Assembly (NCBI GenBank): GCA_026397315.1
Contig: JAPLVC010000007.1
Coordinates: forward strand, 32,001-96,000
DNA from: Candidatus Aenigmatarchaeota archaeon
Lineage (GTDB): Archaea; Aenigmatarchaeota; Aenigmatarchaeia; QMZP01; QMZT01
Length of the DNA: 64,000 bases
Direction of reading: 5' to 3'
The notes under the pieces are model-generated. The model saw nothing but the letters and a program-made list of their open reading frames with translations. It had not been told where the DNA came from and ran no database searches. Positions 2,569-35,240 of the stretch are shown here, in pieces. Within the stretch, counting starts at the first letter, position 1, and the number at the start of each line of letters is the position of its first letter. The position numbers were made by a program, and so were the translations under genes.

Positions 2569-5181
2569 TCATCCCACGTATTCCTTGCCGTTGAACTTGA
2601 CCGCGAAACCTTTGCTGGCGGTCTTCGTGTCGTACTCGATTATCACTTCTTCCATAGGCGCGAGCTCGAGGATTTCCCATGTTAGCGTTTCTGTCGACTC
2701 GTCGAACGGCTCTATCTTGGGTTTGACGTTGCAGCGTATGAAAGCGCCACGAGGGACGGAATCGCGCACGATTATGTCTTCAAGCGTCTTATTCGTTTTG
2801 TTGCGGACCTTCAGCATCACGCGCGGGCCGCTCACTGTTTTCTCGAGCTTCAGCGGGCCGCCGCCAAGCGACAGCGAGAACCGCTTTTCGCCGCCGGACT
2901 TCATCGTCACCCCGCCCGGCGAAGCGGCTGCTTTCCTGCTTTTCATTATCCTGAGAGCGGCGAAAGCTATGCCGCCGCAAGAGGCTATAAGGACTATTAT
3001 TTCCAGCAAAAGGATGAAGTCGAAAGGCTCGGGAACATTTACAGAGGAGATGTCCAGGAAATAGCCGCCCTTCCTCGCTGTGAAGTCGACGCGCCCGGCG
3101 TGCTTTATCTCTATCGCGGCCGTGCCGCTGCTGTCGGTCTCGTAATCGTCCTCTACCAGCGGGTCCGTGTCGAGGTATTTGACGAGTATCCTGACCCCGT
3201 CGACGGGCTCATAGTTCTGGTCCACGACCTTCAGGGCGAATTTCTGCCCCACCTCGAAGCTGCTTGGCAGCGCCATGGAAAGCATCCTCTCGACACATTC
3301 GTTCGCGGAAGAACAGGTCTCGTTCTCGTCGCACTGCAGGTCGCTGCAGCAGTAGCCTATGTCCATGTCGCATTTGTGGCTGCTTATCTTCTCCGGGCAT
3401 GCGCAGCTGACGGCCTTGCAAGCGTGAGTCGCTAGGTCACAGACCTGCGTGCCTGAGCAGACGCTGTCTGAGCAGCAGTCGTAATAGACGCACTGGTGGT
3501 CGGAAGCGTAGCCGCAGTTGCACTCAAGATCCTGGCACTCCCACGCAAGGCACGTCTGCTCGTCGTTGCAGTCGGCGGGCCAAACGCATTCGTAAGCGGG
3601 ATATACCGTGAAAGAAACGCTGGTCGTGTTGGTCACATTCGCAGATGACACGCAGATGAACACTACTTCCTCGCCGCCCTCCATGTCGGAAACGTTAATG
3701 TACATGGTGAACATGGTGGAGCCAACCGCCTGCATCTGGCCGGACATGCTGCCTATAGTGTAGTTGCAAGAGTTCATGTCGCTGTCGCTGTAGACGGACA
3801 ACGCTAGCGTCAGGTTGACGGTCAGGTTGTATTTCATGTAAGTCTCGTTCTTGGGGGATGCTATTGAAATGATGAACGCACTGGCGTTCGATTCGTTAGT
3901 TGGTATGGGGGTTAGCGCTAGCGCCAGCGACGAATCGCTGGTCAGGTTGAACGCCGTGTAATTCGATGCGTATCCCGTTTTGCTCACGTTGACGAAATAA
4001 GGATTGAACAGGAAAGTGCCGCTCGCGTTCTCGATTTTTTCATTGAGCACTTGAGACGTTATGTAGCCCTGTGCGTTTGTGTTGCCTGAAAACACGATTC
4101 CGGACAGGTTGCTCATGACCACGACCTGCGCGGCGTTTATGAAACTGCTCGCGTTGTCGATCGCCCGTACGCTAAGCTGCCACTTGCGGATGCCATAAGT
4201 ATATGTGGTGTTGGTTATGGTAGTGGAAACGGCGGATCTCATCCACAGGTCGTATATGCCGCTCGCGTTTACCAGATTGTTTGCGAGAAGCGTGTTCGAA
4301 GTGGTATCGATGTAAAGGCCGTAACCCGTATTGCCAAGTATCACGTTGCCGGTGACGATGCTGTTGGCGGAGTTGGCCAGCTCGAGGCCGTAGGAACCCT
4401 TGTTCGCCTCTATCCTGTTGCCTGTCAAGTTGTTGCCCACGCCGGCGATGCCGAAGCCGCCCCCGCTGTTGTTGAAGAATATGTTCGAGCTTATCACAGA
4501 ATTGTTTATGAGGAACGCCGGGAACGCAGTGGAGCTGCTGTTGGCTATGACGTTCGAGGAGAGCGTTATGCCGCTGCCGGTCATGCCGGCGATGTTGCCG
4601 CCGCTGTTCGAGACGAGCGTGTTGCCCGTTATGATGTCGTTCGAGCCCGAGACTTCGATGCCCACGTAATTGGAGGCGAACGTGCTGGCGCTCACGTTGC
4701 TGCCTGAAGCGTAAAGCAGAAGGGCGTAATAGTTGTTCGCGAATGTAACGTTGGAAATGACGGTGCCGGACGACTTGACATAGACGCCTCTCATCTTGTT
4801 GTCGCCGGAAATGAAGCCGCAGCCGCTCACGGACGAGTCGCGGATTGAGAGGGTCGCGCCCGTGTTAGATACGAACGTGTATGCATACGACGATTCGCTG
4901 CGTATGGTCGAGCCGGCTATGGAAAGCGTGCCGTTGACATCTATGCCGAACTGGCCGTTATAGTTCGAGTTAAAACTGAGAATTGAGTTTTCCAGCGTTA
5001 GGTTGCTCACACCGTTAATCAGCAGGCTGCCGTTGAGGACTATGGTCTGGGACGAGCAGACGATGTTCTCCGTAATCAGCCAATCTCCAGTCGCGGGCGG
5101 CTCGCATCCCTGGGCGGCTGCATATCCAGGCTGCGCAGCGAAAGCTATTGCAAACGCTATCGCTAAAATCCAACTCCTCAT
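2569..5181 (-). CDS. Large surface protein: signal peptide, parallel beta-helix (NosD/PbH1-like) repeats, Cys-rich repeats, TM anchor, C-terminal Ig/DUF11-like domain
   Basis: Signal peptide; Asn/Gly-rich beta-helix repeats; many NxS/T sequons; CC-x3-C repeats; TM ILLLEIIVLIASCGGIAFAAL. Confidence 0.8.
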   Translation of the reverse strand: MRSWILAIAFAIAFAAQPGYAAAQGCEPPATGDWLITENIVCSSQTIVLNGSLLINGVSNLTLENSILSFNSNYNGQFGIDVNGTLSIAGSTIRSESSYAYTFVSNTGATLSIRDSSVSGCGFISGDNKMRGVYVKSSGTVISNVTFANNYYALLLYASGSNVSASTFASNYVGIEVSGSNDIITGNTLVSNSGGNIAGMTGSGITLSSNVIANSSSTAFPAFLINNSVISSNIFFNNSGGGFGIAGVGNNLTGNRIEANKGSYGLELANSANSIVTGNVILGNTGYGLYIDTTSNTLLANNLVNASGIYDLWMRSAVSTTITNTTYTYGIRKWQLSVRAIDNASSFINAAQVVVMSNLSGIVFSGNTNAQGYITSQVLNEKIENASGTFLFNPYFVNVSKTGYASNYTAFNLTSDSSLALALTPIPTNESNASAFIISIASPKNETYMKYNLTVNLTLALSVYSDSDMNSCNYTIGSMSGQMQAVGSTMFTMYINVSDMEGGEEVVFICVSSANVTNTTSVSFTVYPAYECVWPADCNDEQTCLAWECQDLECNCGYASDHQCVYYDCCSDSVCSGTQVCDLATHACKAVSCACPEKISSHKCDMDIGYCCSDLQCDENETCSSANECVERMLSMALPSSFEVGQKFALKVVDQNYEPVDGVRILVKYLDTDPLVEDDYETDSSGTAAIEIKHAGRVDFTARKGGYFLDISSVNVPEPFDFILLLEIIVLIASCGGIAFAALRIMKSRKAAASPGGVTMKSGGEKRFSLSLGGGPLKLEKTVSGPRVMLKVRNKTNKTLEDIIVRDSVPRGAFIRCNVKPKIEPFDESTETLTWEILELAPMEEVIIEYDTKTASKGFAVKFNGKEYVG

Positions 5182-8278: not shown

Positions 8279-11110
8279 TTAATTGCCCGGCCAATCAGTC
8301 GTATGTTTTGCATAAACTTGCGCGGTGCCGCCCATGGCGTTTATCACTACTGATGAAAATAGCCTTGCTCCGGGTTTTTTAACTACGATTTGAAGCACAA
8401 TATCCGCTATCATAGTACCTGCAAATATCGCAGTTGCTGCTCCAGAAGGTTTAGTATAGCAGTAATTGTGCTTTTCACTTGAGTATGGGCTCTGGTCGGC
8501 ATATATCAATAATGCGTCATTGACAATGCAATTGGTTCCCAATTTGGCATATTTTGTAAATGTCCTAGTTTCAGCCTCTTTGCAATCTTTATTAAAGAAA
8601 ATTGGTTGTTCGACATTCGCAGCGTCACTTCTTAATTGGCAATTGACTAATTTTTTATGAACAATGCCTTCCAAGTTTCCATCTTCATCACCCCACGAAA
8701 CAATGCTTAGTTTGTGAGCAATAGTCAGAATGTCAGGTGTGGTTATACTTTGGAATTCGACTGAATTCACTTTCTGTTCTGATTTTGTTATATTAATTAC
8801 TATATACGTTGTTTCTCCATAATCCGGAATTTCTATAACGCTTTTCAAATCTTTCAATCTGTAAGTAAATAAGATAAAATCGCTTTTATCAACAAATCCC
8901 ATATTATTGCCTGAGCCGAGATTTCCAAGTTCGAAAATGTCGTATTTAGATAAATCGGTTATATCAAACGGTGGTTTATCAATTGCATGTACTTCATTAT
9001 TTTTGCCAACATATTCTATCGCATTCGTCTTTGGATTGTAATAGAAATCTAAATCTGTCACTGGTTCTTTTATATGAATATATTTATCCGGTAAGGTATA
9101 ACTAGGAACTGCAATATCATTTTGTAAAATAGGTATTTTATTGCCGGCAGTGATGTCCGTTATCAAAGTTGTTTCCTTGGAAGCAATTTCAGCTTTCAGA
9201 TTCTTATCTTTCTCCATATTATCTTTATTGATACTGATTAAACCGGTACTGTCAGTAGATGTATATTTATTCATCTCTACATGTGAAAATGGCAAATTTT
9301 CACAAACATCAAATGGTCCTTCTTCAATCCTCTCGCTATAACCTTGGGAGTCTCTTGGCAAGCACTCGATACTTTTTGATTCTATGTCATATTTGTATGA
9401 TCCGCAAGGAACTGGTTTTGGACTTTTAATTATCTGAAGATCGGCCTTGCATGGGGATGCCAGATAAAAAGGCACGTACGCGGGTGCTATTTCTTTTTGC
9501 AGGAAGCTGTAATCCTTTAAAAGTATGATTGGCACGTTGAATCTTGAAACTTTAAATTCTTCTGCCTCATTGGTGAAAAGAGTTCTTTTTTGTAATACGA
9601 GGGAGCCTGGCTTTTCGTAAAATTTGTCATTTATTGCATCCAATTTATATCCAAGAAAATCAATACCCGCCGCTAAGCCTGTAACCTTTAGCGCTCTTGC
9701 ATAATCTTCCCAAGCTGGTGTAAATGCTTTTGTTCCCATGAATTTGTTTAAAATGCCAGTTTTTTTCACGACATCCAGTTTTTCAAAATCTTTTTTAACA
9801 AGCTCTGAAACTTTCGCTATTGCAGTACTTTCGCCTTTATCGAGGGCTTCCTTAACCGCTTTTTCCAATACAGAGTTTCCAATTTCTTTTGAAAGGTAAT
9901 AGGTCGCTAAGCCATCTGCACCTTCAGAAATAACTTTGGTGCCTATTATTTTTCCGGCCAGCTTTTTTTTACCATAAGCTACTATTATCTGTTCTTCTGC
10001 TTCTTGTGTGCTTTTGCCAATAAGTTTAGAAACTAGTTTAGAAACCATATTCTTACTTTTACTTGCGAGGTCCTTCACCTTACCCACAACAAACCTTTTT
10101 CCGGCACCGAAAATTTCGGAGACAGGCAAAGCGTACATGAAAACTGTTTCTGCATTTTCCATCCATGTGGATAATTTCGTCCATCCAACATCCTCGCCTT
10201 CTGGGAATCTTTGCCAGTAAAGTATAAACTGCGGGTCGCCCAATCCTTCAAATAAAACCTTATGTACGTTACTTTCATCGGTAATTATCTGCGGAAGTTG
10301 AAAATTTTTAATTGTGCATTTAGCGTCTTTTTCAAGGCCTACTTTTTCGAGGTTGTTAATGTTATCGATTGTCAAAGTTTCTGATTTTTCATTTTTGTGA
10401 TGAATTATAATTTCATCATCTCCTCCCCTCACGACTGCCTGCTCTAGTATTTTAATGCCAGCACTGTATCTGCTTTTCTCTGGCTGATTTTTGTCTATTG
10501 CGCCGATTTCATTGCCAATCCACAGGTGTATTTCATCAACACCAGAAAACATTGAATTCATACTCGAAACGGTTTTGTATTCATAAAATTTCTCGCCGCA
10601 ATCGGGACATTTAGATTTCCATTCACCGCTATCGAATACGTACCAAACATTCTCGTGATCACATGCGGGGTTTAAAGTTCCGCAGTCTTCATCATATTCT
10701 AACTCAGGGTAACCGCTTTTCAAGTCACAATAAAGGGATGCATCACTTGGTGCTGATTGTGTCTGAGTTTGGGAGTTTTGCGTGGCGGTAGCATCCGCGG
10801 CAGCATTGCCTGTCACAGTCGCACCGTTAGGTGAGTTTTTAATAATACCTGCACATTGTTCATCGCCAGTAAAAACAGTGTCTATCGCACACTTCAACAT
10901 CTGTGTAGACTGCTTGGCGCTTTCGTAATCCACTGTCGAAACTTTACCTGTGCACAGGGCGGGTATTTTGTCACAGATACCGTCGAGTATGGAGTTGATG
11001 CCGCCCGACTGGGCGATGATGAAGCCTATGACAAGAAACGTGAAAACCAGGGCGATTAGGATTTCAAAAGGCGGCTGGGCGATGAAACTGTCTCCCTTCC
11101 TCTTACCCAT
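8279..11110 (-). CDS. Large (943 aa) protein with class III (pilin-like) signal peptide
   Basis: ATG at 11110 gives MGKRKG|DSFIAQPPFEILIALVFTFLVIGFII; Cys-rich extracellular parts; AT-rich body. Confidence 0.8.
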   Translation of the reverse strand: MGKRKGDSFIAQPPFEILIALVFTFLVIGFIIAQSGGINSILDGICDKIPALCTGKVSTVDYESAKQSTQMLKCAIDTVFTGDEQCAGIIKNSPNGATVTGNAAADATATQNSQTQTQSAPSDASLYCDLKSGYPELEYDEDCGTLNPACDHENVWYVFDSGEWKSKCPDCGEKFYEYKTVSSMNSMFSGVDEIHLWIGNEIGAIDKNQPEKSRYSAGIKILEQAVVRGGDDEIIIHHKNEKSETLTIDNINNLEKVGLEKDAKCTIKNFQLPQIITDESNVHKVLFEGLGDPQFILYWQRFPEGEDVGWTKLSTWMENAETVFMYALPVSEIFGAGKRFVVGKVKDLASKSKNMVSKLVSKLIGKSTQEAEEQIIVAYGKKKLAGKIIGTKVISEGADGLATYYLSKEIGNSVLEKAVKEALDKGESTAIAKVSELVKKDFEKLDVVKKTGILNKFMGTKAFTPAWEDYARALKVTGLAAGIDFLGYKLDAINDKFYEKPGSLVLQKRTLFTNEAEEFKVSRFNVPIILLKDYSFLQKEIAPAYVPFYLASPCKADLQIIKSPKPVPCGSYKYDIESKSIECLPRDSQGYSERIEEGPFDVCENLPFSHVEMNKYTSTDSTGLISINKDNMEKDKNLKAEIASKETTLITDITAGNKIPILQNDIAVPSYTLPDKYIHIKEPVTDLDFYYNPKTNAIEYVGKNNEVHAIDKPPFDITDLSKYDIFELGNLGSGNNMGFVDKSDFILFTYRLKDLKSVIEIPDYGETTYIVINITKSEQKVNSVEFQSITTPDILTIAHKLSIVSWGDEDGNLEGIVHKKLVNCQLRSDAANVEQPIFFNKDCKEAETRTFTKYAKLGTNCIVNDALLIYADQSPYSSEKHNYCYTKPSGAATAIFAGTMIADIVLQIVVKKPGARLFSSVVINAMGGTAQVYAKHTTDWPGN

Positions 11111-11233: not shown

Positions 11234-11509
11234 ATGAACACATCATTGGAAATCGTGGTCGTGGCAATCATCCTTCTGGTCGTGGCGCTGGTTCTTCTGA
11301 CGATATTCGGAACTGGCATGACACCATTCGGTGCTTTCACAAGCAACAAAAATGTATGCATACAACAATACGACTCTTCGTGCAAAGCTACTGGTAATGA
11401 TCCTGTGGATTGGGGAGTCGCTAAATACAAGGACTCTAAAGGGGTTTTGCAAGCGTGCTCGACTCTTGCCAAGTGTTCATGCATCAATAACGTCGCCTCG
11501 TGCACCTAA
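11234..11509 (+). CDS. Pilin-like protein lacking a basic leader
   Basis: MNTSLEIVVVAIILLVVALVLL; Cys-rich C-terminus; TATA TTTAAATA ~24 nt upstream. Confidence 0.8.
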   Translation: MNTSLEIVVVAIILLVVALVLLTIFGTGMTPFGAFTSNKNVCIQQYDSSCKATGNDPVDWGVAKYKDSKGVLQACSTLAKCSCINNVASCT

Positions 11510-11559: not shown

Positions 11560-11991
11560 ATGAGAATGGCCCTTGAGATTGTGGTCGTGACTATCATACT
11601 TCTTGTCGTGGCGATTGTGGTACTCATGTTTTTCGCCAACGGCATGCGTGCCGGCGTCGACATGACGGACGCGAGGAACCAGTGCATTACCATGGCCTCG
11701 GCCTCGTGCAAGTCGCTGAAGGTCTTGCCTCCGACATGGTTTGTGCCGACGGTCACCGTTGAAGGGAAGACCGCACCGGAAAGCTGCGACGATATAACAG
11801 AGGGAGCCTACAAAGATTGCAGTAAATTTGGCGTGACCGGAGGCGGCGCGACGACAGGCGGAACGACGACGATAACCACGAACACACAGTGCACGACAGC
11901 ATTATACACTTGCGAGGCCTCGTGCACTGCACCCAAGACGCAAAAAGGGACATGCGATGCCGACCCCGCCAAGAAAGCGTGCTGCGGCTGA
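11560..11991 (+). CDS. Pilin-like protein, paralog of 11234 gene, with Thr/Gly linker and Cys-rich tail
   Basis: MRMALEIVVVTIILLVVAIVVL; shared C-x7-C-x9-W pattern. Confidence 0.8.
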   Translation: MRMALEIVVVTIILLVVAIVVLMFFANGMRAGVDMTDARNQCITMASASCKSLKVLPPTWFVPTVTVEGKTAPESCDDITEGAYKDCSKFGVTGGGATTGGTTTITTNTQCTTALYTCEASCTAPKTQKGTCDADPAKKACCG

Positions 11992-12006: not shown

Positions 12007-12126
12007 ATGATGCAAATGATGAAAGGGCAAAGTGATATCGTGGCCTCAGGCCTGCCCATATTCGCGATGGTCGTGCTGATAGTCCTTATCATACTGGTGG
12101 CCGTGAGGATTTTCGGCGGCGGATGA
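12007..12126 (+). CDS. Micro-pilin-like protein with class III signal (39 aa; not in ORF track)
   Basis: MMQMMKG|QSDIVASGLPIFAMVVLIVLIILVAVRIFGGG; stop abuts next ATG. Confidence 0.65.
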   Translation: MMQMMKGQSDIVASGLPIFAMVVLIVLIILVAVRIFGGG

Positions 12127-12127
12127 A

Positions 12128-12313
12128 ATGGTGAAAAACTTGGAAAGGGAAACCGGCAAAACGGGGAAAAAGAAGGGCTTCATAATATTCATGGGTCTCA
12201 ACATGTGGGTCGAAATCCTGCTCATGATAGTCCTGACGTTCATACTCATAGCGGTCATAGACGCTCTTTCTGGCTACAGGATTGGCTTCCTGAGCATACT
12301 GGGAATAAAATAG
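12128..12313 (+). CDS. Small class III signal peptide protein
   Basis: KKKG|FIIFMGLNMWVEILLMIVLTFILIAVI. Confidence 0.7.
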   Translation: MVKNLERETGKTGKKKGFIIFMGLNMWVEILLMIVLTFILIAVIDALSGYRIGFLSILGIK

Positions 12314-12360: not shown

Positions 12361-12942
12361 ATGAAAAAAGCCTCTTCGTCATCCATCATGACATTCAGGC
12401 TGGTTATATCCCTCATCCTCGGAATTTTTGTGATTGTTCTTCTCATCAGAGGCATAAACGAGCAGGTATACGGTGCCTGCTGGAGCCAGGCGAAATACGC
12501 CTTCGAGGAGCTGAAGGATGGGGAAAACGACATCGTGCTGGGCGATTGCATAGTCAATGCCTACTTGGTCCCCAAAGACGGACTTGACGCCCTAAGGGCT
12601 CAGGACGTGAACATATTCAGCTGCGCCAAGAGGAACGACCCGGAATATTTCTCTTTTGCCATAATCAGGCCTAACAGCGACGTGAAGGTGACTGAAATAA
12701 TCGAGAGCGGCGGCAAGAAAATAACCCAGACCATGCTTGAAACGTATTGCGTCGGATACAGATACAAGCTGAACACCATGAGCCTGAATATTTTTGAAGG
12801 CAAGAAGAGCTATTGCATAAAGCTCGATCGGGTAAGCGGCAGCACCGACTCGAACGACAAGTATGTAAGCATAAGGGAAGGCGCATGCTCTGCATCATTT
12901 TCAGGAGGAGCATCGGGCGGAGCCGGAGCAAGCAAATCTTAA
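12361..12942 (+). CDS. Pilin-like protein with class III-like signal
   Basis: MKKA|SSSSIMTFRLVISLILGIFVIVLLI; paired Cys. Confidence 0.75.
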   Translation: MKKASSSSIMTFRLVISLILGIFVIVLLIRGINEQVYGACWSQAKYAFEELKDGENDIVLGDCIVNAYLVPKDGLDALRAQDVNIFSCAKRNDPEYFSFAIIRPNSDVKVTEIIESGGKKITQTMLETYCVGYRYKLNTMSLNIFEGKKSYCIKLDRVSGSTDSNDKYVSIREGACSASFSGGASGGAGASKS

Positions 12943-12969: not shown

Positions 12970-13977
12970 TTGGGAGAAACTGAAGAGGATGTTCTCGAAG
13001 CCCTCGCGATGGTCATAATAGTTGTCCTGGGCCTGATAGTGCTGATCGTATCGATAATGCCCAGTAGTTTTACCGGCACCAGCGCCGGGGCGTTTGCTGT
13101 GGCGACTGGCATATCATATTCTATAAGCGGGCTGTCGCTAGCGGACGAAGGCTCGATGACAAGATATCTCAACGGCAGCTACGACATCGAGATAGGCCTG
13201 GAAGAGGATTCTGACGGTCCCCTGAAGAATTATTACATAAGGGCGACGGCTTACGGAAAAGGAAACCCGCTCAGCCCTATAGACAAGATAATTTTCATAG
13301 GCGACATGCAGCTGGACAAAGACCCGACAAAACTGGTAAACGTCACGTACATCAGCCTCACGAAAAGCTACGGCAAGCCTGTCAGGATAGTCAAGACCAC
13401 GGAAACTCGCTTCTCGGACGCCCTTTGCAAAGAGCCGACGCCTGAGAAAATAAAGGATTACATCCAGACATACTCGCCGGACAAGGAAGAACAGAAATGG
13501 ATAAAGGCGATAATAATGACTGAAAGCGGTTATGTCCATTGCAGCGGTTCGACCGTGGGGGCGTTCGGCTTCATGCAGCTCATGGAAATCGCCGCGAGGG
13601 ACGTGGGCATAAGCGACAGGTTCGACCCTGAGCAGAACATCGATGGCGGCGTGAGATACTACAGGAAGCTCGTGCAAAAATACGAATCCTACGACGACAA
13701 ATACGTGCTGGCTGTCGCCAGTTACAACTGCGGCAAGATAGGCACTCTCGTGTCGCAGAACTGCGACGCGCAGAACATATACATCGGCTGCTGGGAAAAG
13801 GCCGTCAGGGAGTTCACGCGTGAGAAGGAGTGCCAGGGCAGCGGCGGCAAGGAAACTTACAACTACGTGGACAGGGTAAAGACATGCGTGAAATATTACG
13901 AGCAAAACCCGGAATGCTACAACAGTCCGGGCACGGGCAGCTCGTGCCCTAAAAGCAGTGACTGCGGAAACTGGTGA
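12970..13977 (+). CDS. Pilin-like membrane-anchored lytic transglycosylase (SLT/GH23 domain)
   Basis: N-terminal TM; AIIMTES (catalytic E185), GAFGFMQLM, FDPEQNIDGGVRY, LAVASYNCG, ETYNYVDRV. Confidence 0.92.
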   Translation: MGETEEDVLEALAMVIIVVLGLIVLIVSIMPSSFTGTSAGAFAVATGISYSISGLSLADEGSMTRYLNGSYDIEIGLEEDSDGPLKNYYIRATAYGKGNPLSPIDKIIFIGDMQLDKDPTKLVNVTYISLTKSYGKPVRIVKTTETRFSDALCKEPTPEKIKDYIQTYSPDKEEQKWIKAIIMTESGYVHCSGSTVGAFGFMQLMEIAARDVGISDRFDPEQNIDGGVRYYRKLVQKYESYDDKYVLAVASYNCGKIGTLVSQNCDAQNIYIGCWEKAVREFTREKECQGSGGKETYNYVDRVKTCVKYYEQNPECYNSPGTGSSCPKSSDCGNW

Positions 13978-13980
13978 AAT

Positions 13981-14763
13981 ATGCTTAAAAAAATGAAAGG
14001 CGGCATAAGTGAATCGCCATGGACAATCTGGGCAGTCATAATATTCGCGGCCGTCATCGTCGCTGGTTCATTTTTCCTCAATTCGTATTATATCGATTAC
14101 GCGGCATTTCTGAAAACTCCGCCGGAAAGGCTCAAAGCGCTTGAAGCAACCAACGCCGTGCGCGGGTGCCTGCTTAACGGGAAGCCTTACGTGACGAAGG
14201 ACTTTCTCGACGAGAACAGCGGCGAGGACATAGACGACCTGTGCGGCTTCGAGGACCCGGGTACAGAAGCCGACGTCCTTGACACGCAAACCGGCCAGAA
14301 GTGGGGTCTGAGCTCGAGTCTGAGCAAAGCGGACCACTCGGTCTGGATTCCGATTGCTTACACAGGTTTTCAGGAAATAACCGATGTCAATTACGCTTTA
14401 AGCGGAGAATATGTCATACATGCGAAGTGGCTAGGCGTCGGGGTGCTTAACATAAAAGCCAACGACGTCATTTTGGAATTATATCCTTCGGCGCTTTACC
14501 CGGGCGGATCAAGCAAGCTTGAAAGCGTCACCTCTTCCAAAGTCAGGGAATGGATAGAAAAGCTGGTTGATGCTGACAACCCCGAAGGCACGCAGAAGGC
14601 GGACCTGACAGGCATGAACATAATGGCGATAATCCCGTCAGAATACAGTCTCAAAGAATGCAGTTCGGTTGGCGACCTGCTTTCCCACGAGGCCTGCGTG
14701 AAAATGTTTACGGGGGTAAAAGAAATTCATTTAGGGAGACTGAACGTCGATGTTACGCTCTAA
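13981..14763 (+). CDS. Class III signal peptide (minor pilin-like) protein
   Basis: MLKKMKG|GISESPWTIWAVIIFAAVIVAG. Confidence 0.75.
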   Translation: MLKKMKGGISESPWTIWAVIIFAAVIVAGSFFLNSYYIDYAAFLKTPPERLKALEATNAVRGCLLNGKPYVTKDFLDENSGEDIDDLCGFEDPGTEADVLDTQTGQKWGLSSSLSKADHSVWIPIAYTGFQEITDVNYALSGEYVIHAKWLGVGVLNIKANDVILELYPSALYPGGSSKLESVTSSKVREWIEKLVDADNPEGTQKADLTGMNIMAIIPSEYSLKECSSVGDLLSHEACVKMFTGVKEIHLGRLNVDVTL

Positions 14764-15781
14764 AAATAAAAAGGGGATAGCGGACTTTGCGTTGTTCGTC
14801 GTGATAGCGATAGCGGTCGTATCGCTCATACTCGTTGCCAGCTGGCTGGGAAAGGTGCTTGGCCAGGGTAGGCAGCTAGTCAAAGTCAAGGGAGTGGTGG
14901 ACGTTTACGTCAACCTTGACGACAAAGGCAGCGAGTTCAGCTTTCTGGAAGCCAAAAATGGCGATTATGATTTCATGGAAATTCTCGGCGTCGTGGGATC
15001 CGGAGCCAAGATAGGAGGCGACCTTAAAGCCCAGATGGAAAATGTGGAAAAAAGCATCGAAAGGATAAAGAATTCCGACAAGAAAAATTTCTACATATCC
15101 GTCATAAGCCCGGAGGGTAAAGTGGTGTATGAGAAGAAAAGCGGCAATCCGCCGCTCGTCGTGGGAACGGGCGGAGAGGACATACTGCTAAAATGGCCGC
15201 TGGACGCCAGCAACTATGAGATAATATCGGGTTTCGGGTGGAGAAAAGACCCATTCTCAGGCAAGGACTCGTTCCACGGCGGTATAGACATACCGGGAAA
15301 TCTGGGAGACCCCGTTTACAGCGCAACGGACGGAACCGTATACAGGACGGTAAACAATGATGCGGATTTGGGCAATTTTGTCGTTATAAAATACACATCA
15401 CAAAGGACGAACACGCCGTATTACGTTTATTACGGACACATGCAGGGCTTTTCCGTAAGAACTGGTGACAGTGTGAAGATCGGAGAGGAGATAGGGAAAG
15501 TTGGCTCCACCGGCAAATCACAGGGCCCGCACCTGCATTTCGAGATAAGAAAAGACAAAAACGGCGACGGCAATTTAGCGCCAGACGCAGAGTCGGTAAA
15601 CCTCTGCCCGTATCTCACAGGCGCGTCAGGCGGCATTGTCGACTCAAAAACTTGCATGAAAAAATGCCCGGTATACGAGAATCCGGACTCATGCGATTCT
15701 GATATGACGGTCGTCACGAACAGGTTTGACATACCTGTTCCGGGCGGAAAGAAAGGCTACGTGGAGCTGATGCTATGGTAA
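14750..15781 (+). CDS. Class III signal peptide protein with M23 (LytM/lysostaphin-type) peptidase domain
   Basis: KNKKG|IADFALFVVI; ISGFGWRKDP, HGGID (H176-x3-D180), YGHM, GSTGKSQGPHLHFEIR (H261-x-H263). Confidence 0.93.
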   Translation: MLRSKNKKGIADFALFVVIAIAVVSLILVASWLGKVLGQGRQLVKVKGVVDVYVNLDDKGSEFSFLEAKNGDYDFMEILGVVGSGAKIGGDLKAQMENVEKSIERIKNSDKKNFYISVISPEGKVVYEKKSGNPPLVVGTGGEDILLKWPLDASNYEIISGFGWRKDPFSGKDSFHGGIDIPGNLGDPVYSATDGTVYRTVNNDADLGNFVVIKYTSQRTNTPYYVYYGHMQGFSVRTGDSVKIGEEIGKVGSTGKSQGPHLHFEIRKDKNGDGNLAPDAESVNLCPYLTGASGGIVDSKTCMKKCPVYENPDSCDSDMTVVTNRFDIPVPGGKKGYVELMLW

Positions 15782-16941
15782 AATTCAAGGGCATGACGAT
15801 AAACATCCTCAGCGTAGGCCTGATAATACTCGTTTCCGTGATTCTTTATGCGTTCCTCAACCCGCTATCGCAGCCGCATTCGTCTGAATACGCGAAAACG
15901 GATATCTATGTCATGAAAAACGCCCTAGATTCGTCCAAAGTCTATTTGAGGGCGTCTTTCGATTATGCTGTTTACCAGGCGCTTTACGACGTTTCGAGAA
16001 AGGGAGGGTTTAGCGACGCCCAAAGCCAGTCCGCATACGCTAACGCTCTGGCGCCTGTCATATCATGCCAGAAAACCGACAAAAGAATCGGTGAGCCGGA
16101 AAAGATAATCGGCTGCGTTCCCGGCGAATACGGATGCCCAGACAGCGACGGCAAAGATGCTTACATAAACGAAGGTTACCAGGTAGGCCTCTTGCAATTC
16201 CTGCTAAAAGACCTTAAATACGAACTTACCGTTGACTGCAAGTTTGGCAAGGGCAGCCTGGAAAAACTCAAGGAATTCCAGAAAGACAAAGGCCTTACTG
16301 AAAGCGGTTTCCTTGACGACGCCACGACGGAGAAGCTGAAAGAATCCTTTGCTTACGATAACTGCGGGGATTATTTTTACGGATGCACGAACAGTTTTTC
16401 TGCCGTATGGAGCACGGAACTCGCAGAAGACCAGTTCAAAAGTAACATCAAGAATGAGATCGTAAAAAACATGAACTCATACACGTCAAAAGGATACGTC
16501 TTCCTCGACCTTCCAATAACAGGTCTTCCGCAATACAAAACCGACAAGATTACGATTTCCGAATCCGGGACTGGATTGAAAGTCTCGCTCAGCGGGGATA
16601 ACATAAAAATATCAAAGAAAGATGAATATGAAGTCATTGACATAGCGTCATCGTCCGACATGGAAAAAATATACGATATAGATGCCTTCGGCATTTACAG
16701 GAAAGCAAAAAGCGTATACAACGACATTAAAAGCAAAGGATGCGATGCCGCAAAAGACGAAACGAAAACTGAAGGCGGATTTAAAACTGAAGTGAAGATC
16801 GTGAGCAAGACGACGAACCCTGAATGCTCCGCTAAAGTCAGGGTCTCGGTGGTGGAAGAAAATCCTAAAAAAGTTCCTGTCTTCAACGGACGTTCCGTAT
16901 CTTTCGAGCCGGTTAACATGATTTTAATGTTGAATTTGTAA
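15775..16941 (+). CDS. Class III signal peptide protein with peptidoglycan-binding (PG_binding_1-like) domain
   Basis: MVKFKG|MTINILSVGLIIL; VGLLQFLLKDLKY...VDCKFGKGSLEKLKEFQKDKGLTESGFLDDATTEKL. Confidence 0.8.
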   Translation: MVKFKGMTINILSVGLIILVSVILYAFLNPLSQPHSSEYAKTDIYVMKNALDSSKVYLRASFDYAVYQALYDVSRKGGFSDAQSQSAYANALAPVISCQKTDKRIGEPEKIIGCVPGEYGCPDSDGKDAYINEGYQVGLLQFLLKDLKYELTVDCKFGKGSLEKLKEFQKDKGLTESGFLDDATTEKLKESFAYDNCGDYFYGCTNSFSAVWSTELAEDQFKSNIKNEIVKNMNSYTSKGYVFLDLPITGLPQYKTDKITISESGTGLKVSLSGDNIKISKKDEYEVIDIASSSDMEKIYDIDAFGIYRKAKSVYNDIKSKGCDAAKDETKTEGGFKTEVKIVSKTTNPECSAKVRVSVVEENPKKVPVFNGRSVSFEPVNMILMLNL

Positions 16942-17738: not shown

Positions 17739-18860
17739 TCACTTTAAGAACTTGTCTACCTGTTTCCTCGCGTGCTCCCTCTTCCTTGCGTGCTCGCGCA
17801 GAAACGCTTCCATCTTTTCCACGAGAATCTGCTTCAGTTCGCCTGAAAGCAGCTTGCCGGACTTGTAGTCGTCGTAAATCTGCTGCATCTTCTTGTCGTC
17901 GGGCTCGAATTGCGAGTAGAGATACTGGTAGGCGACGTCGATTTCCGGCACGCCTCCTTTCTTGCGATGCTCCTCCAGCGTGTCTCGCCCTCCGGAGAAG
18001 GCGTATTTCATTATCTTGCTTTTTGCAGTGGCCGGGTCGTCCGTGAGGGCGATGTAGGAATACGGGTCCGAAGAGCTCATCTTCCCACCCTTGAGGCCCT
18101 TGATGAAAACATGATACGTCGACGATGGAAGCACGAAATTGTGCTCCTTCTCGAAGCGCGCCGCGATGTCCCTGCTTAGGCGTATGTGCGGGTCCTGGTC
18201 CGCGCCGACGGGCACGACGACGTGCCTGTAGCCGCCGAATTCAGGCAGCATGGGATGGAGGATGTCCGCGACCTGCGTCATGACCGACATTACTTTTCCC
18301 GGCGTGATTTCGCCGTAAACGGCCTTCATCTCGTTGAACGTGACCTTCTTAGCGGCCATGCCGGACAGGCGGTAGAACGCGTTGGCTTTGTCCGGGTCTT
18401 TCGAGCGCGCGCTCTGGAAGTAGAAGTCGCAGTTCTTCGGGTCGAGCCCGAGAGCTATGTAATTGACCAGGTATTCGTTTATCGCGATTTCGCGCAGCTT
18501 ATCCATGTCGTCTATGCGCATGTTGTATGCCTCGATGTCGGCGACGCAGATGAACACCTTCGCTCCGAGCACTTTCTGATGGTAGATTATCTGCTCTGCC
18601 AGGATCTTGTGACCGAGATGGAACTTGCCCGAAGGCATAAGCCCCGTGAGCATGGCGTAACTCTCTTTTCTCGCGAGCGCGTCGAGAATCTTGTCGAAGT
18701 CGCGATGGCCGAACACGATGCCTCTTCTCATGAGTAAGTGAGGCTCCTTCATCCGCTTTAGTAACGGCTCGAACGGCTGGATGCCGAACTCGTCGCGCAG
18801 CTTGGCGTAATCCTTCACTTCCATTGATCCCCATGGATTTATTTCAGTTTTCATTTTCAT
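17739..18860 (-). CDS. trpS: Tryptophan--tRNA ligase
   Basis: TGLMPSGKFHLGH, VPVGADQDPH, KMSSS, AFSGGR. Confidence 0.95.
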   Translation of the reverse strand: MKMKTEINPWGSMEVKDYAKLRDEFGIQPFEPLLKRMKEPHLLMRRGIVFGHRDFDKILDALARKESYAMLTGLMPSGKFHLGHKILAEQIIYHQKVLGAKVFICVADIEAYNMRIDDMDKLREIAINEYLVNYIALGLDPKNCDFYFQSARSKDPDKANAFYRLSGMAAKKVTFNEMKAVYGEITPGKVMSVMTQVADILHPMLPEFGGYRHVVVPVGADQDPHIRLSRDIAARFEKEHNFVLPSSTYHVFIKGLKGGKMSSSDPYSYIALTDDPATAKSKIMKYAFSGGRDTLEEHRKKGGVPEIDVAYQYLYSQFEPDDKKMQQIYDDYKSGKLLSGELKQILVEKMEAFLREHARKREHARKQVDKFLK

Positions 18861-18940
18861 CACTTGCCGTCATCACAGATAATCTATATTTTGATTCGTT
18901 TGTATATATTCTCTCACGGTCCGTTTCAATAACTGCCCGT

Positions 18941-24490: not shown

Positions 24491-25780
24491 CTAGCGCGTC
24501 ACTTCTAGCTTGTTGACCGCTTCCAAAAGATCTTTGGCCTTCGCGTTCTTCTCGAAGTGCTGCCTGACCGGTTCTAGCAACTCGTTCAGGCGCAACGCCA
24601 CTCCCGATTTCAGATCCATGGGGTGAATTTTGCCCTCGGCATATGCTTTCTCCAGTCCCGCGTAGCTTTCGAAAGACACGTCGCCTCCGAACTTCTCATG
24701 CCTTTTGATGTCAAAAGTCTTGAACTTCTCGAAGATTATGAACTTGCAGTATTCGAGGATCGGGTTTTCTGCAATCTGTTTCTCCGGGCAGTAAGCCTTG
24801 GAAATCTTGCGCTTCACTTCCTCCGGCGAATCGGTCATGAATATCGCGGAATCGGGCTTCGATTTGCTCATCTTCATGTCGATAGCACGTTCAGTCGCAC
24901 TAATCACATGCTCAATTTTTATAGATCCGGGGAATAATTTATCATATAATATTTTGATTTTTGAGCCATCTGGATAATTATACTCACTAATATTTTTTTT
25001 AATGAAGAATTTTTGTTTATCTACAACATCTTCCAAAAAGAACTCATCTGCTTCTCTATAATATTTAAACCTAGATGCTTTGTTGTAAATATCTAAATCT
25101 AGACTATATCTTAAACTAACTACAGGTTCTACTAATCCCATCATCATATGGTGAGAGACGATGACCGGCTTCCAGTAGCCGAGCTTCGGGCCGATTTCGC
25201 GCGCGAGCACGTTGACCTTGCGCTGGTCCAGGCCGAGCTGGCATATGTCCGCCTTCAGATGAAAAATGTCCGCGGCCTGCATGCACGGGTAGAGAATCTG
25301 CGACGCCTGCTGCACGTCCGCGTCTTTCCGTCCCATTATCTGGCCGCAGCGGACGATTCTGTTGACAGTCGTGTTGCGCGCCACCTGCATGACCTTCTTC
25401 CAGTAGTCGTCGTCTTTCACGTGCCCTGAGGCCCAAACGAATTCTACGTTATCGGCGTCGAGGCCACACGACTTCCAGACCTCTATGAGGTATTTGCCTA
25501 CCGTCTGTATGTTCTCGAGATTACCGCCCATCTTGTTGTTCGCCCAGCCGTGCCAGTCGGCAACCAGCATCTTGAACTTGCAGCCGGCGGAAGTCATTTT
25601 GTTTATGTTTATCGCCCGCAGTAGGCCCTGCGCTATGTGGACGTGCCCGCTCGGCTCGAAGCCATCATACGCTATCGGATGCTTTTTCTCCGCGAGCAGC
25701 GCCTTCAGCTCCTCAGGAGTGACTATCTCCCCGCCTTCGCCTACCTGCGAAACCAGCTCGAAGCGCTTTTCGACATCCAT
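24491..25780 (-). CDS. tyrS: Tyrosine--tRNA ligase with ~70-aa insertion before KMSKS
   Basis: YDGFEPSGHVHIAQ, YPCMQAADI, GLDQRKVN, KMSKS. Confidence 0.95.
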   Translation of the reverse strand: MDVEKRFELVSQVGEGGEIVTPEELKALLAEKKHPIAYDGFEPSGHVHIAQGLLRAININKMTSAGCKFKMLVADWHGWANNKMGGNLENIQTVGKYLIEVWKSCGLDADNVEFVWASGHVKDDDYWKKVMQVARNTTVNRIVRCGQIMGRKDADVQQASQILYPCMQAADIFHLKADICQLGLDQRKVNVLAREIGPKLGYWKPVIVSHHMMMGLVEPVVSLRYSLDLDIYNKASRFKYYREADEFFLEDVVDKQKFFIKKNISEYNYPDGSKIKILYDKLFPGSIKIEHVISATERAIDMKMSKSKPDSAIFMTDSPEEVKRKISKAYCPEKQIAENPILEYCKFIIFEKFKTFDIKRHEKFGGDVSFESYAGLEKAYAEGKIHPMDLKSGVALRLNELLEPVRQHFEKNAKAKDLLEAVNKLEVTR

Positions 25781-33689: not shown

Positions 33690-34097
33690 ATGACCAAGAT
33701 AATTTATCTCGACACCAACATCTATCTAGATTATTATTTTGATAGACATGGATCTAAAAGAGCATTTGATATAATATTTTTTCGAGCACCAAATTGTGAA
33801 TTCAAAATAGTTGTTTCAGATTGGGTTCTGCGAGAACTTGAACTTAATGGAATTGGTTCAAAAGAAATGAAAACACTTTTCAGTAGAATTTCTGAAAATA
33901 AAAAATTGGTTACAATTTTTACAGAAAAACCAAAGGACATAGACGATGCGAAAAAAATATCATCGGATCATTTTCAAGATCCATTACATGTGATTCTCGC
34001 TAAGAAGGGTGGCGCTGAAATATTAATAACAAGAAATGTACAAGATTTCAACTGTTGTAGGCATCTTTTAGATATCAAGTTTCCTGAAGATATTTGA
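33690..34097 (+). CDS. PIN-domain (VapC-like) nuclease
   Basis: IYLDTNIY, LRE, DPLH, LITRNVQDF. Confidence 0.88.
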   Translation: MTKIIYLDTNIYLDYYFDRHGSKRAFDIIFFRAPNCEFKIVVSDWVLRELELNGIGSKEMKTLFSRISENKKLVTIFTEKPKDIDDAKKISSDHFQDPLHVILAKKGGAEILITRNVQDFNCCRHLLDIKFPEDI

Positions 34098-35240
34098 TGT
34101 ATCTTCCTTCGCAAATTCTTCAGCTATTTTTCTTCTTTCATCTTTCGTAGTCTTCTTCTCTTCAATTATTTTCATCAAAGTCCTGTATTTTTCAAATTCT
34201 TTAAACTCAGTTTCTTTCAATTCATCAACTTTGCACAGATCTCTCAAATAAGAAACGTATTCAATCGCTAACCTTTCATTTATTATGAAATAAATATCAA
34301 GATATGATTTGAGCGTGTTTTTGTCATAACCAATTTTTAAAAGACTTTCAAAAAGATTATATGTGGTTATCATATCCCACACAATTCGCATAGTGTCTAG
34401 TATTTCTGTCCTCAATTCGTTTATTTCATCAGATTTCATAGTTTTTAGCATGTAAATTGTAGTTGAAATAAAATCATTCAATATCTTTGCAGCATTTTCA
34501 GTTTCCTCATTTAATTTAAAATTAAATCCAATCTCCATTAGAATATCTCTTATTTTCAATTTGTTTTCATCATTTAATTCAATAATACCAAAATTTTTCT
34601 CAAATTCAAACTGTCTGAGATAGAGTAAATTTTTAGATTTTATATATTGTCCCTTTCTCATATACACCGAATTGTGATCTTTTTCTTTCTCAACTATTCT
34701 ATTTATGCATTCGTTTATCTCACTCTCATTTTTAACGGACGTGTAACTATAATCCTTTGTTGGGTCATATAATTTTAAGCAAAGTTCACCGAACCTGTAC
34801 CAAACTAATGGTACATCTAGATTACATTCCTGTACTATATCTACAAGTAATTTTTGAACTTGTGTTTTGTTAGGATAATAAGTCGTCTTCTCTTTCCAAG
34901 TTTCTCTAATTTTCATAAAAAGGAAATTTACTAAATTATCTTGTTCCGACTTAATCGGTATTCCGAAAAGCGTTCCTGAATTTTTTTCGGGAGAACTTGT
35001 GCAAGATTTCAAAGTGAAAACTCTTTTGTTTCCTTCTGCTCTCTCAACAGCGATTCCGGATTCTTCTAGCATCTCCAAATATTTGCGCACACTATCCCAT
35101 GTCGTTCCGGTTTCGCCGGCAACTTCATAAATAGATTTGGGGCCTTTTTTCAGGGATTCGATGACAGATTGAACAACTTCGCGGCTGGTCTTCTTGGCAC
35201 TACCCCTGCCAGTTGTCATGTTAATAATATTGGTAACCAT
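34068..35240 (-). CDS. Winged-HTH protein with possible SocA/Panacea(DUF4065)-like central domain
   Basis: SIYEVAGETGTTWDSVRKYLEML HTH; KTQVQKLL...WYRFG; very AT-rich. Confidence 0.65.
   Translation of the reverse strand: MVTNIINMTTGRGSAKKTSREVVQSVIESLKKGPKSIYEVAGETGTTWDSVRKYLEMLEESGIAVERAEGNKRVFTLKSCTSSPEKNSGTLFGIPIKSEQDNLVNFLFMKIRETWKEKTTYYPNKTQVQKLLVDIVQECNLDVPLVWYRFGELCLKLYDPTKDYSYTSVKNESEINECINRIVEKEKDHNSVYMRKGQYIKSKNLLYLRQFEFEKNFGIIELNDENKLKIRDILMEIGFNFKLNEETENAAKILNDFISTTIYMLKTMKSDEINELRTEILDTMRIVWDMITTYNLFESLLKIGYDKNTLKSYLDIYFIINERLAIEYVSYLRDLCKVDELKETEFKEFEKYRTLMKIIEEKKTTKDERRKIAEEFAKEDTSNIFRKLDI

Follow-up and report, generated by a model that had tools for sequence, protein, structure and literature searches.

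The locus considered here raises the question of what use an archaeon has for an enzyme that cleaves bacterial murein. It lies in a stretch of 64,000 nucleotides (hereafter, the window) from a Candidatus Aenigmatarchaeota archaeon (assembly GCA_026397315.1, contig JAPLVC010000007.1, positions 32,001 to 96,000), the genome of which comprises 1.05 Mb in 7 contigs, is 91% complete and carries archaeal markers (GatD/GatE and a geranylgeranyl-reductase-like gene). The gene in question, at window positions 12970-13977 and termed here the SLT gene, encodes a protein of 335 amino acids (aa) which, by sequence and predicted fold, is an intact family-1 lytic transglycosylase of glycoside hydrolase family 23 (GH23), preceded by an N-terminal module (N-module). 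Probably this lytic transglycosylase is anchored at the cell surface, stabilised by disulfides and one of three components of a kit with which the walls of bacteria are opened. The gene and the parts of its product, with model confidence given as the predicted local distance difference test (pLDDT), are the following:

12970..13977, plus strand: whole SLT gene, 335 aa, pilin-like N-module and GH23 lytic transglycosylase, based on the list of open reading frames (ORFs), Pfam and 13 full-length orthologues.
12970..13056, plus strand: residues 1-29, acidic N-terminus (MGETEED) and hydrophobic helix, with a hydropathy of 3.3 over residues 11-29 and helix 2-29 in both models.
13057..13398, plus strand: residues 30-143, carrier module with the invariant Pro31, a predicted amphipathic helix (37-57) and a predicted five-stranded antiparallel sheet.
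13399..13440, plus strand: residues 144-157, linker with Cys153, of low confidence (pLDDT below 50 for residues 144-152).
13441..13914, plus strand: residues 158-315, GH23/SLT catalytic domain, based on structure matches, motifs and conservation of E185.
13522-13524, plus strand: codon of the catalytic Glu185, within the SLT domain.
13915..13974, plus strand: residues 316-335, Cys-rich C-terminal tail (C316, C326, C332), with Cys invariant in the close clade.

Lytic transglycosylases are characterised by motif II (G-L/F-M-Q), motif III (A-Y-N-x-G) and motif IV, a conserved Tyr after E-T. In the present protein all SLT motifs, E185 included, were found at the positions which a preliminary description of this DNA had named, namely E185-S186, VHCSG (189-193), GFMQ (200-203), NIDGG (223-227), SYNCG (251-255) and ETYNYV (295-300). 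E185 and S186 are invariant in the 13 orthologues, which are 50-82% identical, and across 52 family members E185 was kept in 50, S186 in 47, G200 and Y252 in all 52, N253 in 49, G255 in 50 and Y299 in 41. The only significant Pfam domain of the protein is SLT (PF01464), detected over residues 173-256 with 57.4 bits (cut-off 21.3, E=1.3e-15), a sub-threshold Lysozyme_like match overlapping the same residues; when the genome was scanned with the SLT profile, the protein scored 59.8 bits. The best partial matches in NCBIfam were MltF, the flagellar assembly transglycosylase, Slt70 and MltC, and sequence matches in the PDB comprised the lytic transglycosylase domain of a phage tape-measure protein (9b45, E=2.3e-7, the best match) and MltF, in both of which the ES, GxMQ and NIxGG segments line up with those of the query.

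An AlphaFold2 (AF2) model computed from the alignment of the 13 orthologues (pLDDT 79) contains a helical domain at residues 158-315, with pLDDT values mostly of 87-97 over about residues 220-315. Comparison of this model by VIA returned MltF (5aa1_A, Z 13.2, root-mean-square deviation 3.1, 152 residues aligned), MltC (4c5f_A, Z 12.3), the lytic transglycosylase 5o2n_A (Z 11.6), MltE (Z 10.6) and Slt70 (Z 9.8), and Foldseek gave E=1.4e-4, in agreement with a lysozyme-like all-alpha fold. Motifs, profile score and fold all agree with the intact lytic transglycosylase that had been proposed from the letters alone.

The reading frame starts with a TTG codon preceded by GGCGGGTG, a Shine-Dalgarno-like stretch. 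A wrong choice of start codon was ruled out, given that a stop lies 7 codons upstream and no alternative start stands between. The fit of the gene to the synonymous codon choice of the genome is at the 87th percentile, its GC content is 0.525 compared to a gene mean of 0.503, and its GC content at third codon positions is at the 61st percentile. The preliminary description had taken the codon usage to match the host and the gene to be domesticated rather than recently acquired, and both points are borne out by these values together with the synteny across two archaeal families and the core-gene flanks described below; the SLT gene is native and vertically inherited.

The protein contains ten Cys (153, 191, 254, 265, 274, 288, 306, 316, 326 and 332), nine of them in residues 168-335, where they make up 5.4% of the residues versus a genome median of about 1.2%. 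All ten are invariant in the 13 orthologues. Among the 52 family members C153 and C191 co-vary (both present in 48, both absent in 3, discordant in 1; phi 0.86), as do C265 and C274 (phi 0.83) and C254 and C288 (phi 0.67), while co-variation assigned no pair to C306, C316, C326 and C332. The most frequent Cys total in the wider family is 10, and the count is even in 71% of its members. The median number of Cys in the aligned region is 8 in catalytic domains of the family and 0 in the nearest SLT domains without the N-module; of 115 non-family SLT domains, 81 have the canonical Ala at position 254 and 10 have Cys at position 191, and the C-terminal tail (316-335) is missing from most of them. 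About ten Cys in the C-terminal half, stapling the protein, had been noted in the first reading of the sequence. The number holds, and the invariance, the pairwise co-variation and the scarcity of Cys in neighbouring SLT domains suggest that the staples are a lineage-specific addition which behaves as disulfides would. Probably five disulfides would hold the catalytic module rigid. One of them would join C153 in the linker to C191 in the loop that follows the catalytic Glu, and another would pair Cys254, which stands in place of the usual Ala of AYNAG, with C288.

The N-module, modelled alone with AF2 (pLDDT 82), consists of two helices (2-29 and 37-57), interrupted at the invariant Pro31, and of strands 61-79, 86-96, 107-111, 120-132 and 138-143. 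The model has the lollipop architecture of type IV pilins, with an N-terminal helix and an antiparallel beta-sheet head, and residues 1-29 are predicted to be a membrane anchor equivalent to pilin alpha1-N. When the N-module was compared by VIA with 48,161 chains, the best Z was 4.5, a value within noise by the guide of the tool; pilins or pseudopilins made up 8 of the first 11 matches and 13 of the first 50 (XcpV, Streptococcus sanguinis PilB, EpsI, TTHA1222, PilA4, TT_C0855, PilE, GspI and PilV). Foldseek gave nothing better than E=0.16 for the N-module, a profile search of the PDB only an archaeal flagellin at E=1.2, and a search of a protein atlas nothing usable (scores 0.79). No pilin or class III profile was matched by the N-module or by any of the operon proteins in Pfam (E up to 10) or NCBIfam (E up to 1). 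The N-terminus of the window copy, MGETEEDVLEA, contains no [KR]G; the copy shares with 9 of 12 close orthologues a start of the form M-G/A/T-E followed by an acidic stretch without a basic residue. A [KR]G leader is present in 3 of 13 close and 6 of 9 distant orthologues (distant starts being MRMKGQ, MLKGQ, MKKGD, RLKGD and TVKG), with 5-10 polar or charged residues preceding the helix.

As to the claim of a pilin-like scaffold, the architecture and the ranking of the fold matches speak for it, but a significant match, a pilin hidden Markov model (HMM) and a basic-Gly leader are missing, so that the N-module is best described as pilin-like in its modelled architecture and not as a demonstrated pilin. 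That it is a separate scaffold to which the enzyme was fused, as also stated in the preliminary description, is supported by its reuse. From a search that covered 1.84 billion representatives, 161 family and top-match sequences were examined, of which 46 carried the N-module, and in cluster P0084 (405 aa) it is joined not to SLT but to Amidase_2, a MurNAc-L-Ala amidase (profile E=1.7e-25; hhalign 99.9% over 154 columns). Because P0084 bears Amidase_2 in place of SLT, the N-module is a separable, swappable carrier. Pilus machinery is encoded on other contigs of the genome, with a single Peptidase_A24 (contig 7, 111102-111431) and five T2SSE matches that exceed the family cut-off. As a separate observation, class III-type pilin candidates are numerous in the genome, with about 17 ORFs starting KGISP..., KGQ... 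or similar on contigs C2, C3, C4, C5 and C7, several of which stand beside T2SSE-type ATPase genes (C2:35209 beside C2:37861, and C7:27104 beside C7:28543).

The SLT gene belongs to an operon, the other genes of which are listed below together with a divergent gene whose membership of the system is uncertain:

11234..11509, plus strand: g91, small Cys-rich pilin-like protein (MNTSLEIVVV...), with orthologues that start MKG/MS, MKA/MS or MRxSLE and are syntenic in relatives.
11560..11991, plus strand: g141, second small Cys-rich pilin-like protein (MRMALEIVVV...), operon gene.
12019-12126, plus strand: tiny ORF of 35 aa (MKGQSD...), class III-like start and one hydrophobic helix.
12128-12313, plus strand: tiny ORF of 61 aa (KKKG/F...), class III-like start and one hydrophobic helix.
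12361..12942, plus strand: g193, N-anchored protein of no known family, operon gene.
13981..14763, plus strand: g260, N-anchored protein (MLKKMKG/G...) of no known family, beginning 3 nt past the SLT stop.
14750..15781, plus strand: M23 metallopeptidase with a KKG/IADF start, Pfam score of 94 bits, HGGID (176) and HLH (261) intact.
15775..16941, plus strand: PG_binding_1 protein (PGB), N-anchored (KFKG/M...), Pfam match.
8279..11110, minus strand: divergent gene of 943 aa, MGKRKG/D start followed by a hydrophobic helix, 19 Cys, membership of the system uncertain.

The genes for g260 and M23 overlap by 14 nt and those for M23 and PGB by 7 nt. The order small pilin-like genes, g193, SLT, g260, M23 and PGB recurs in 10 of 10 loci of relatives; eight of the genera represented belong to the same family and two to a second one. 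In the relatives ScpB often adjoins the operon, and in the window genome the operon is flanked by ScpB and by a gene for a class I (W/Y) aminoacyl-tRNA synthetase. The window holds two genes of this synthetase type, at 17739-18863 and 24491-25780 (both minus strand) and thus 6 kb apart, the first of which is 80% identical to the operon-adjoining counterpart in one relative (G013).

In nearly all M23, PGB and g260 orthologues [KR]-G/A(-Q) immediately precedes the helix, and the M23 orthologues have an Asp at +3 or +4. As a control, [KR]G before the helix was found in 19 of the 101 other single-pass N-anchored ORFs of the genome, most of these 19 being evident archaeal pilins (KGISPLIAT..., KGQ...), some of which adjoin pilus ATPase genes. 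Comparison by hhalign among the ectodomains of the five operon families detected no homology (probabilities of at most 1.7%). One common scaffold for all operon proteins was considered and is unsupported by these values, yet the N-module of the SLT protein itself is reused with the amidase. The 943-aa gene is AT-rich (GC 0.389, the 6th percentile of the genes of the genome), matched nothing in Pfam, NCBIfam or PHROG, and its single syntenic match among the relatives, in L018, is weak. Elsewhere in the window, a second island of low GC lies at 34-36 kb and holds a 390-aa ORF at 34068-35240 (minus strand) with a GC of 0.317 (2nd percentile), the 2-kb segment around it having a GC of 0.338.

Profile scans located the only SLT, the only M23 and the only PG_binding_1 domain of the genome all in this operon. 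The same genome, which is 91% complete, yielded no match to a penicillin-binding protein (PBP), FtsW/RodA, AnmK or Amidase_2. The SLT enzyme would in this way be aimed at a polymer for which, judging from its gene content, the genome shows no synthesis genes. Scavenging of anhydro-muropeptides was also considered and set aside, as no AnmK was found.

With regard to distribution, the protein query had a match in 19 of 22 genomes of the same family and in 3 of 6 genomes of the second family. Of 301 genomes taken from across the phylum, 86 had a match to the SLT profile, most of them in five families (f1, 18/22; f5, 20/35; f11, 12/19; f14, 19/34; f18, 3/3), and these matches include very large proteins, with open frames of up to 3646 aa. 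One giant relative, P0095 (1723 aa), combines NosD/beta-helix, SLT, M23 and PKD domains in one chain; an 870-aa beta-helix/NosD protein is encoded in the window at 2569-5181 (minus strand), about 8 kb upstream of the operon. The named relatives of the SLT protein all come from metagenome-assembled genomes (MAGs) of Candidatus Aenigmatarchaeota, bar one. This exception, HDL07987.1 in cluster P0023, is labelled Desulfobacteraceae bacterium and comes from a 1.7-kb contig; the label is probably due to mis-binning, and it could hint at a physical association in the sample. A search for related loci yielded three bacterial loci only (Desulfofustis and a Thermodesulfobacteriota MAG), which match in the SLT core alone at 38-51% identity.

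The preliminary description had raised the prospect of a GH23 clade specific to DPANN archaea. In a quick version of the catalytic-domain tree (133 columns, 73 of 155 branches unresolved), the 13-member clade that includes the window protein was recovered with a support of 99, and it falls inside a group of 28 rows, 23 of them with the N-module, with a support of 85. Other N-module SLTs lie elsewhere in the tree, and a single clade of all of them is unsupported, since well-supported branches force at least four changes, an outcome that falls short of a firm rejection.

Taken together, these data lead us to propose the following mechanism. The hydrophobic helix would keep the protein in the archaeal membrane, with the helix-plus-sheet head above it, and Glu185 would act as the single acid/base that cleaves the beta-1,4 bond between N-acetylmuramic acid (MurNAc) and N-acetylglucosamine (GlcNAc) in murein, leaving 1,6-anhydro-MurNAc ends. 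The co-transcribed M23 endopeptidase would cut peptide cross-links alongside the SLT enzyme and the PG_binding_1 protein would hold the wall, both of them carrying similar N-terminal anchors. Acting together, the three may perforate the sacculus locally where the archaeon is in contact with a bacterium, be it host or prey. An extracellular topology, murein as substrate and a bacterium as target are all presumed in this proposal.

Several observations weigh against it. In the window copy no basic residue stands on either side of the helix, and an acidic N-terminus without flanking basic residues implies a topology that differs from the prediction of the positive-inside rule. Residues 192-198, the loop after the catalytic Glu, are poorly modelled, and GH23 also holds g-type lysozymes and chitinases (3w6b_A, Z 10.3). 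The gene does not seem to be needed everywhere: in G004, a genome of the same genus, the orthologue (G004:C2:261426-261967) appears to be broken into frames of 73-110 aa with an internal TAA stop, and 3 of the 22 family genomes gave no match, which indicates that the SLT gene is dispensable in some lineages; in the species of G004 it may be decaying. The genome also holds one Mur_ligase_M homologue.

Among the other explanations, it is possible, if doubtful, that the SLT protein is a true modular minor pilin, cut by the A24 peptidase and polymerised by one of the pilus ATPases of the genome, with the SLT, M23 and PG-binding proteins as a tip complex on a type IV pilus-like filament or, in an alternative form, with a short pseudopilus that pushes the enzymes into the bacterial wall. 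The helix-helix-sheet model, the presence of the tip pseudopilins XcpV, EpsI and GspI and of the modular pilin PilB among its top fold matches, and the starts of distant orthologues (MRMKGQ, MLKGQ, MKKGD) are consistent with such a pilin. So are the [KR]G directly before the hydrophobic helix and the Asp at +3 or +4 in the M23 and PGB families, the small pilin-like genes that head the operon, the five T2SSE-type ATPase matches and one A24 peptidase of the genome, a pilus ATPase that lies about 6 kb from the operon in one relative, and the precedent of bacterial modular pilins (PMC8179133). However, the best Z of 4.5 is below the noise guide of the tool and Foldseek yielded nothing, no pilin domain was matched in Pfam or NCBIfam at the permissive thresholds given above, and the window copy and 9 of 12 close orthologues have no [KR]G leader. 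Moreover, in those SLT orthologues that do bear KG the helix follows only after 5-10 polar or charged residues, which sets them apart from known prepilins; no homology was detected among the ectodomains of the five operon families; and assembly genes are unlinked to the operon in 9 of 10 relatives and in the window genome. We regard only tentatively the related proposal that the operon as a whole encodes a type IV pilus or pseudopilus tip complex, in which each minor-pilin-like subunit would bear one murein-directed tool (lytic transglycosylase, M23 endopeptidase and PG-binding domain, with the amidase in a sister lineage). If true, the tip complex would be a filament-mounted drill that breaches bacterial walls, and bacterial rather than archaeal hosts or prey would be implied.

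A substrate other than bacterial murein (chitin, an archaeal surface glycan or the pseudomurein of a methanogen host) seems unlikely to us. Such a substrate would suit the matches of the model to a GH23 chitinase (Z 10.3) and a GH19-type archaeal chitinase (Z 7.0), and PMC8204110 gives archaea as the hosts of cultured DPANN archaea. On the other hand, the ES, GxMQ and YNxG motifs point to murein, as do the top matches by HMM and structure (MltF, MltC and Slt70), the adjoining M23 protein with its intact active site and the PG_binding_1 protein, both murein-directed, and the sister protein in which SLT is exchanged for a murein-specific MurNAc-L-Ala amidase. Pseudomurein has beta-1,3 links to N-acetyltalosaminuronic acid, and no GH23 enzyme is known to cut these links, which counts against pseudomurein in particular. 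Very improbable is an autolysin function, that is, enzymes which remodel the wall of the archaeon itself for the passage of pili or other machines. Bacterial SLT proteins often serve the assembly of pili, flagella and secretion systems, the NCBIfam matches include the flagellar assembly transglycosylase, and the Mur_ligase_M homologue could be read in the same sense; but neither a PBP transpeptidase nor FtsW/RodA was found in the 91%-complete genome, and the Mur-ligase family also matched the wall-less control archaea Methanocaldococcus jannaschii and Haloferax volcanii. That the operon descends from a virus or mobile element, whose lysis or tail-tip cassette stayed behind in the chromosome, is extremely unlikely in our judgement. 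In favour of this origin, a phage tape-measure protein (9b45) is the best PDB sequence match, many PHROG lysis and tail families are matched by the SLT and M23 domains, and the adjoining 943-aa gene is compositionally atypical (GC 0.389). Nevertheless, the matches to phage families are limited to the catalytic domains, with none for the other operon genes, the codon usage of the SLT gene is native, the gene order and the ScpB neighbour are kept across genera and two families, and no capsid, portal, terminase or integrase was found among the scanned ORFs over about 9 kb upstream and 5 kb downstream.

The only recognisable functions of the operon, which this archaeal family has kept by vertical inheritance and with adapted codons, are the cutting and binding of bacterial murein; a surface-anchored muralytic kit would constitute testable genomic evidence for a cross-domain interaction, in the form of parasitism or predation on bacteria. 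It would also extend the idea of the modular pilin to archaea, with a helix-plus-sheet carrier and an enzymatic, wall-degrading cargo, and suggest a delivery route for archaeal peptidoglycan hydrolases without Sec or Tat signals, 68% of the archaeal peptidoglycan hydrolases in a 2025 survey having no recognised signal peptide (PMC12352652). Being compact and stabilised, the disulfide-stapled GH23 domain may also find practical use as a muralytic enzyme.

An SLT-type enzyme is already known in DPANN archaea, and one member of the present family is already annotated automatically in NCBI as an SLT-domain protein. SLT domains have been repeatedly reported in this group, mostly in large proteins of Woesearchaeota and Pacearchaeota, and have been read as anti-bacterial (PMC8204110, PMC9723730, PMC10936187). 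The literature searched yielded no account of the pilin-shaped carrier or of the same carrier joined to an amidase, and none of the disulfide stapling or of a conserved SLT-M23-PGB operon in Aenigmatarchaeota. The Woesearchaeota and Pacearchaeota proteins (fam00969 in PMC8204110; PMC9723730) resemble the present one in that an SLT domain is part of a putatively extracellular protein of a DPANN archaeon with a small genome; they belong to other phyla and reach up to 3000 aa, whereas the Aenigmatarchaeota protein has 335 aa, a pilin-shaped carrier and an operon with M23 and PG_binding_1. To the bacterial enzymes MltF (family 1E), MltC (1B) and Slt70 (1A) the likeness lies in the catalytic fold, the ES, GxMQ, YNxG and Tyr motifs and the single catalytic Glu. 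In contrast, the N-module has no relation to the ABC-type or superhelical modules that MltF and Slt70 carry, ten conserved Cys are present where neighbouring bacterial domains have a median of none, a Cys replaces the Ala of AYNAG, and the enzyme belongs to an archaeon whose genome yielded no genes for murein synthesis.

Closest in domain content are Woldo and Danwoldo of Halogranum salarium, secreted M23/glucosaminidase and PG_binding_1 proteins which kill a bacterium (PMC12352652). In these, catalytic and binding domains are united in one Tat-secreted soluble chain, whereas here they are distributed over separate N-anchored proteins of one operon. The survey in that work required a catalytic and a wall-binding Pfam domain in the same protein and would therefore miss this split operon, in which the SLT protein has no wall-binding Pfam domain of its own and PG_binding_1 is on another protein, two genes downstream. 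The tip pseudopilins of the type II secretion system (T2SS), GspI/EpsI/XcpV, are the best-ranked neighbours of the N-module (5bw0_B, Z 4.5; 2ret_A, Z 4.4; 3ci0_I, Z 3.8), and they also belong to operons with several pilin-like genes. They differ in that no significant similarity of sequence or structure links them to the N-module, and the operon described here is without counterparts of GspJ and GspK and without a linked secretin or ATPase. Finally, modular pilins, that is, small pilins to which a functional module has been added, are well described from a survey limited to bacteria (Raynaud et al., 2021; PMC8179133), and S. sanguinis PilB (7b7p_A) is the second-best, weak fold match of the N-module (Z 4.4). 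The likeness resides in the reuse of the N-module as a carrier of different cargo domains, as seen in P0084. PilB has a canonical class III signal peptide, proven polymerisation and an adhesive cargo, whereas the Aenigmatarchaeota protein combines a non-canonical or absent leader with a wall hydrolase as cargo and an archaeon as host.

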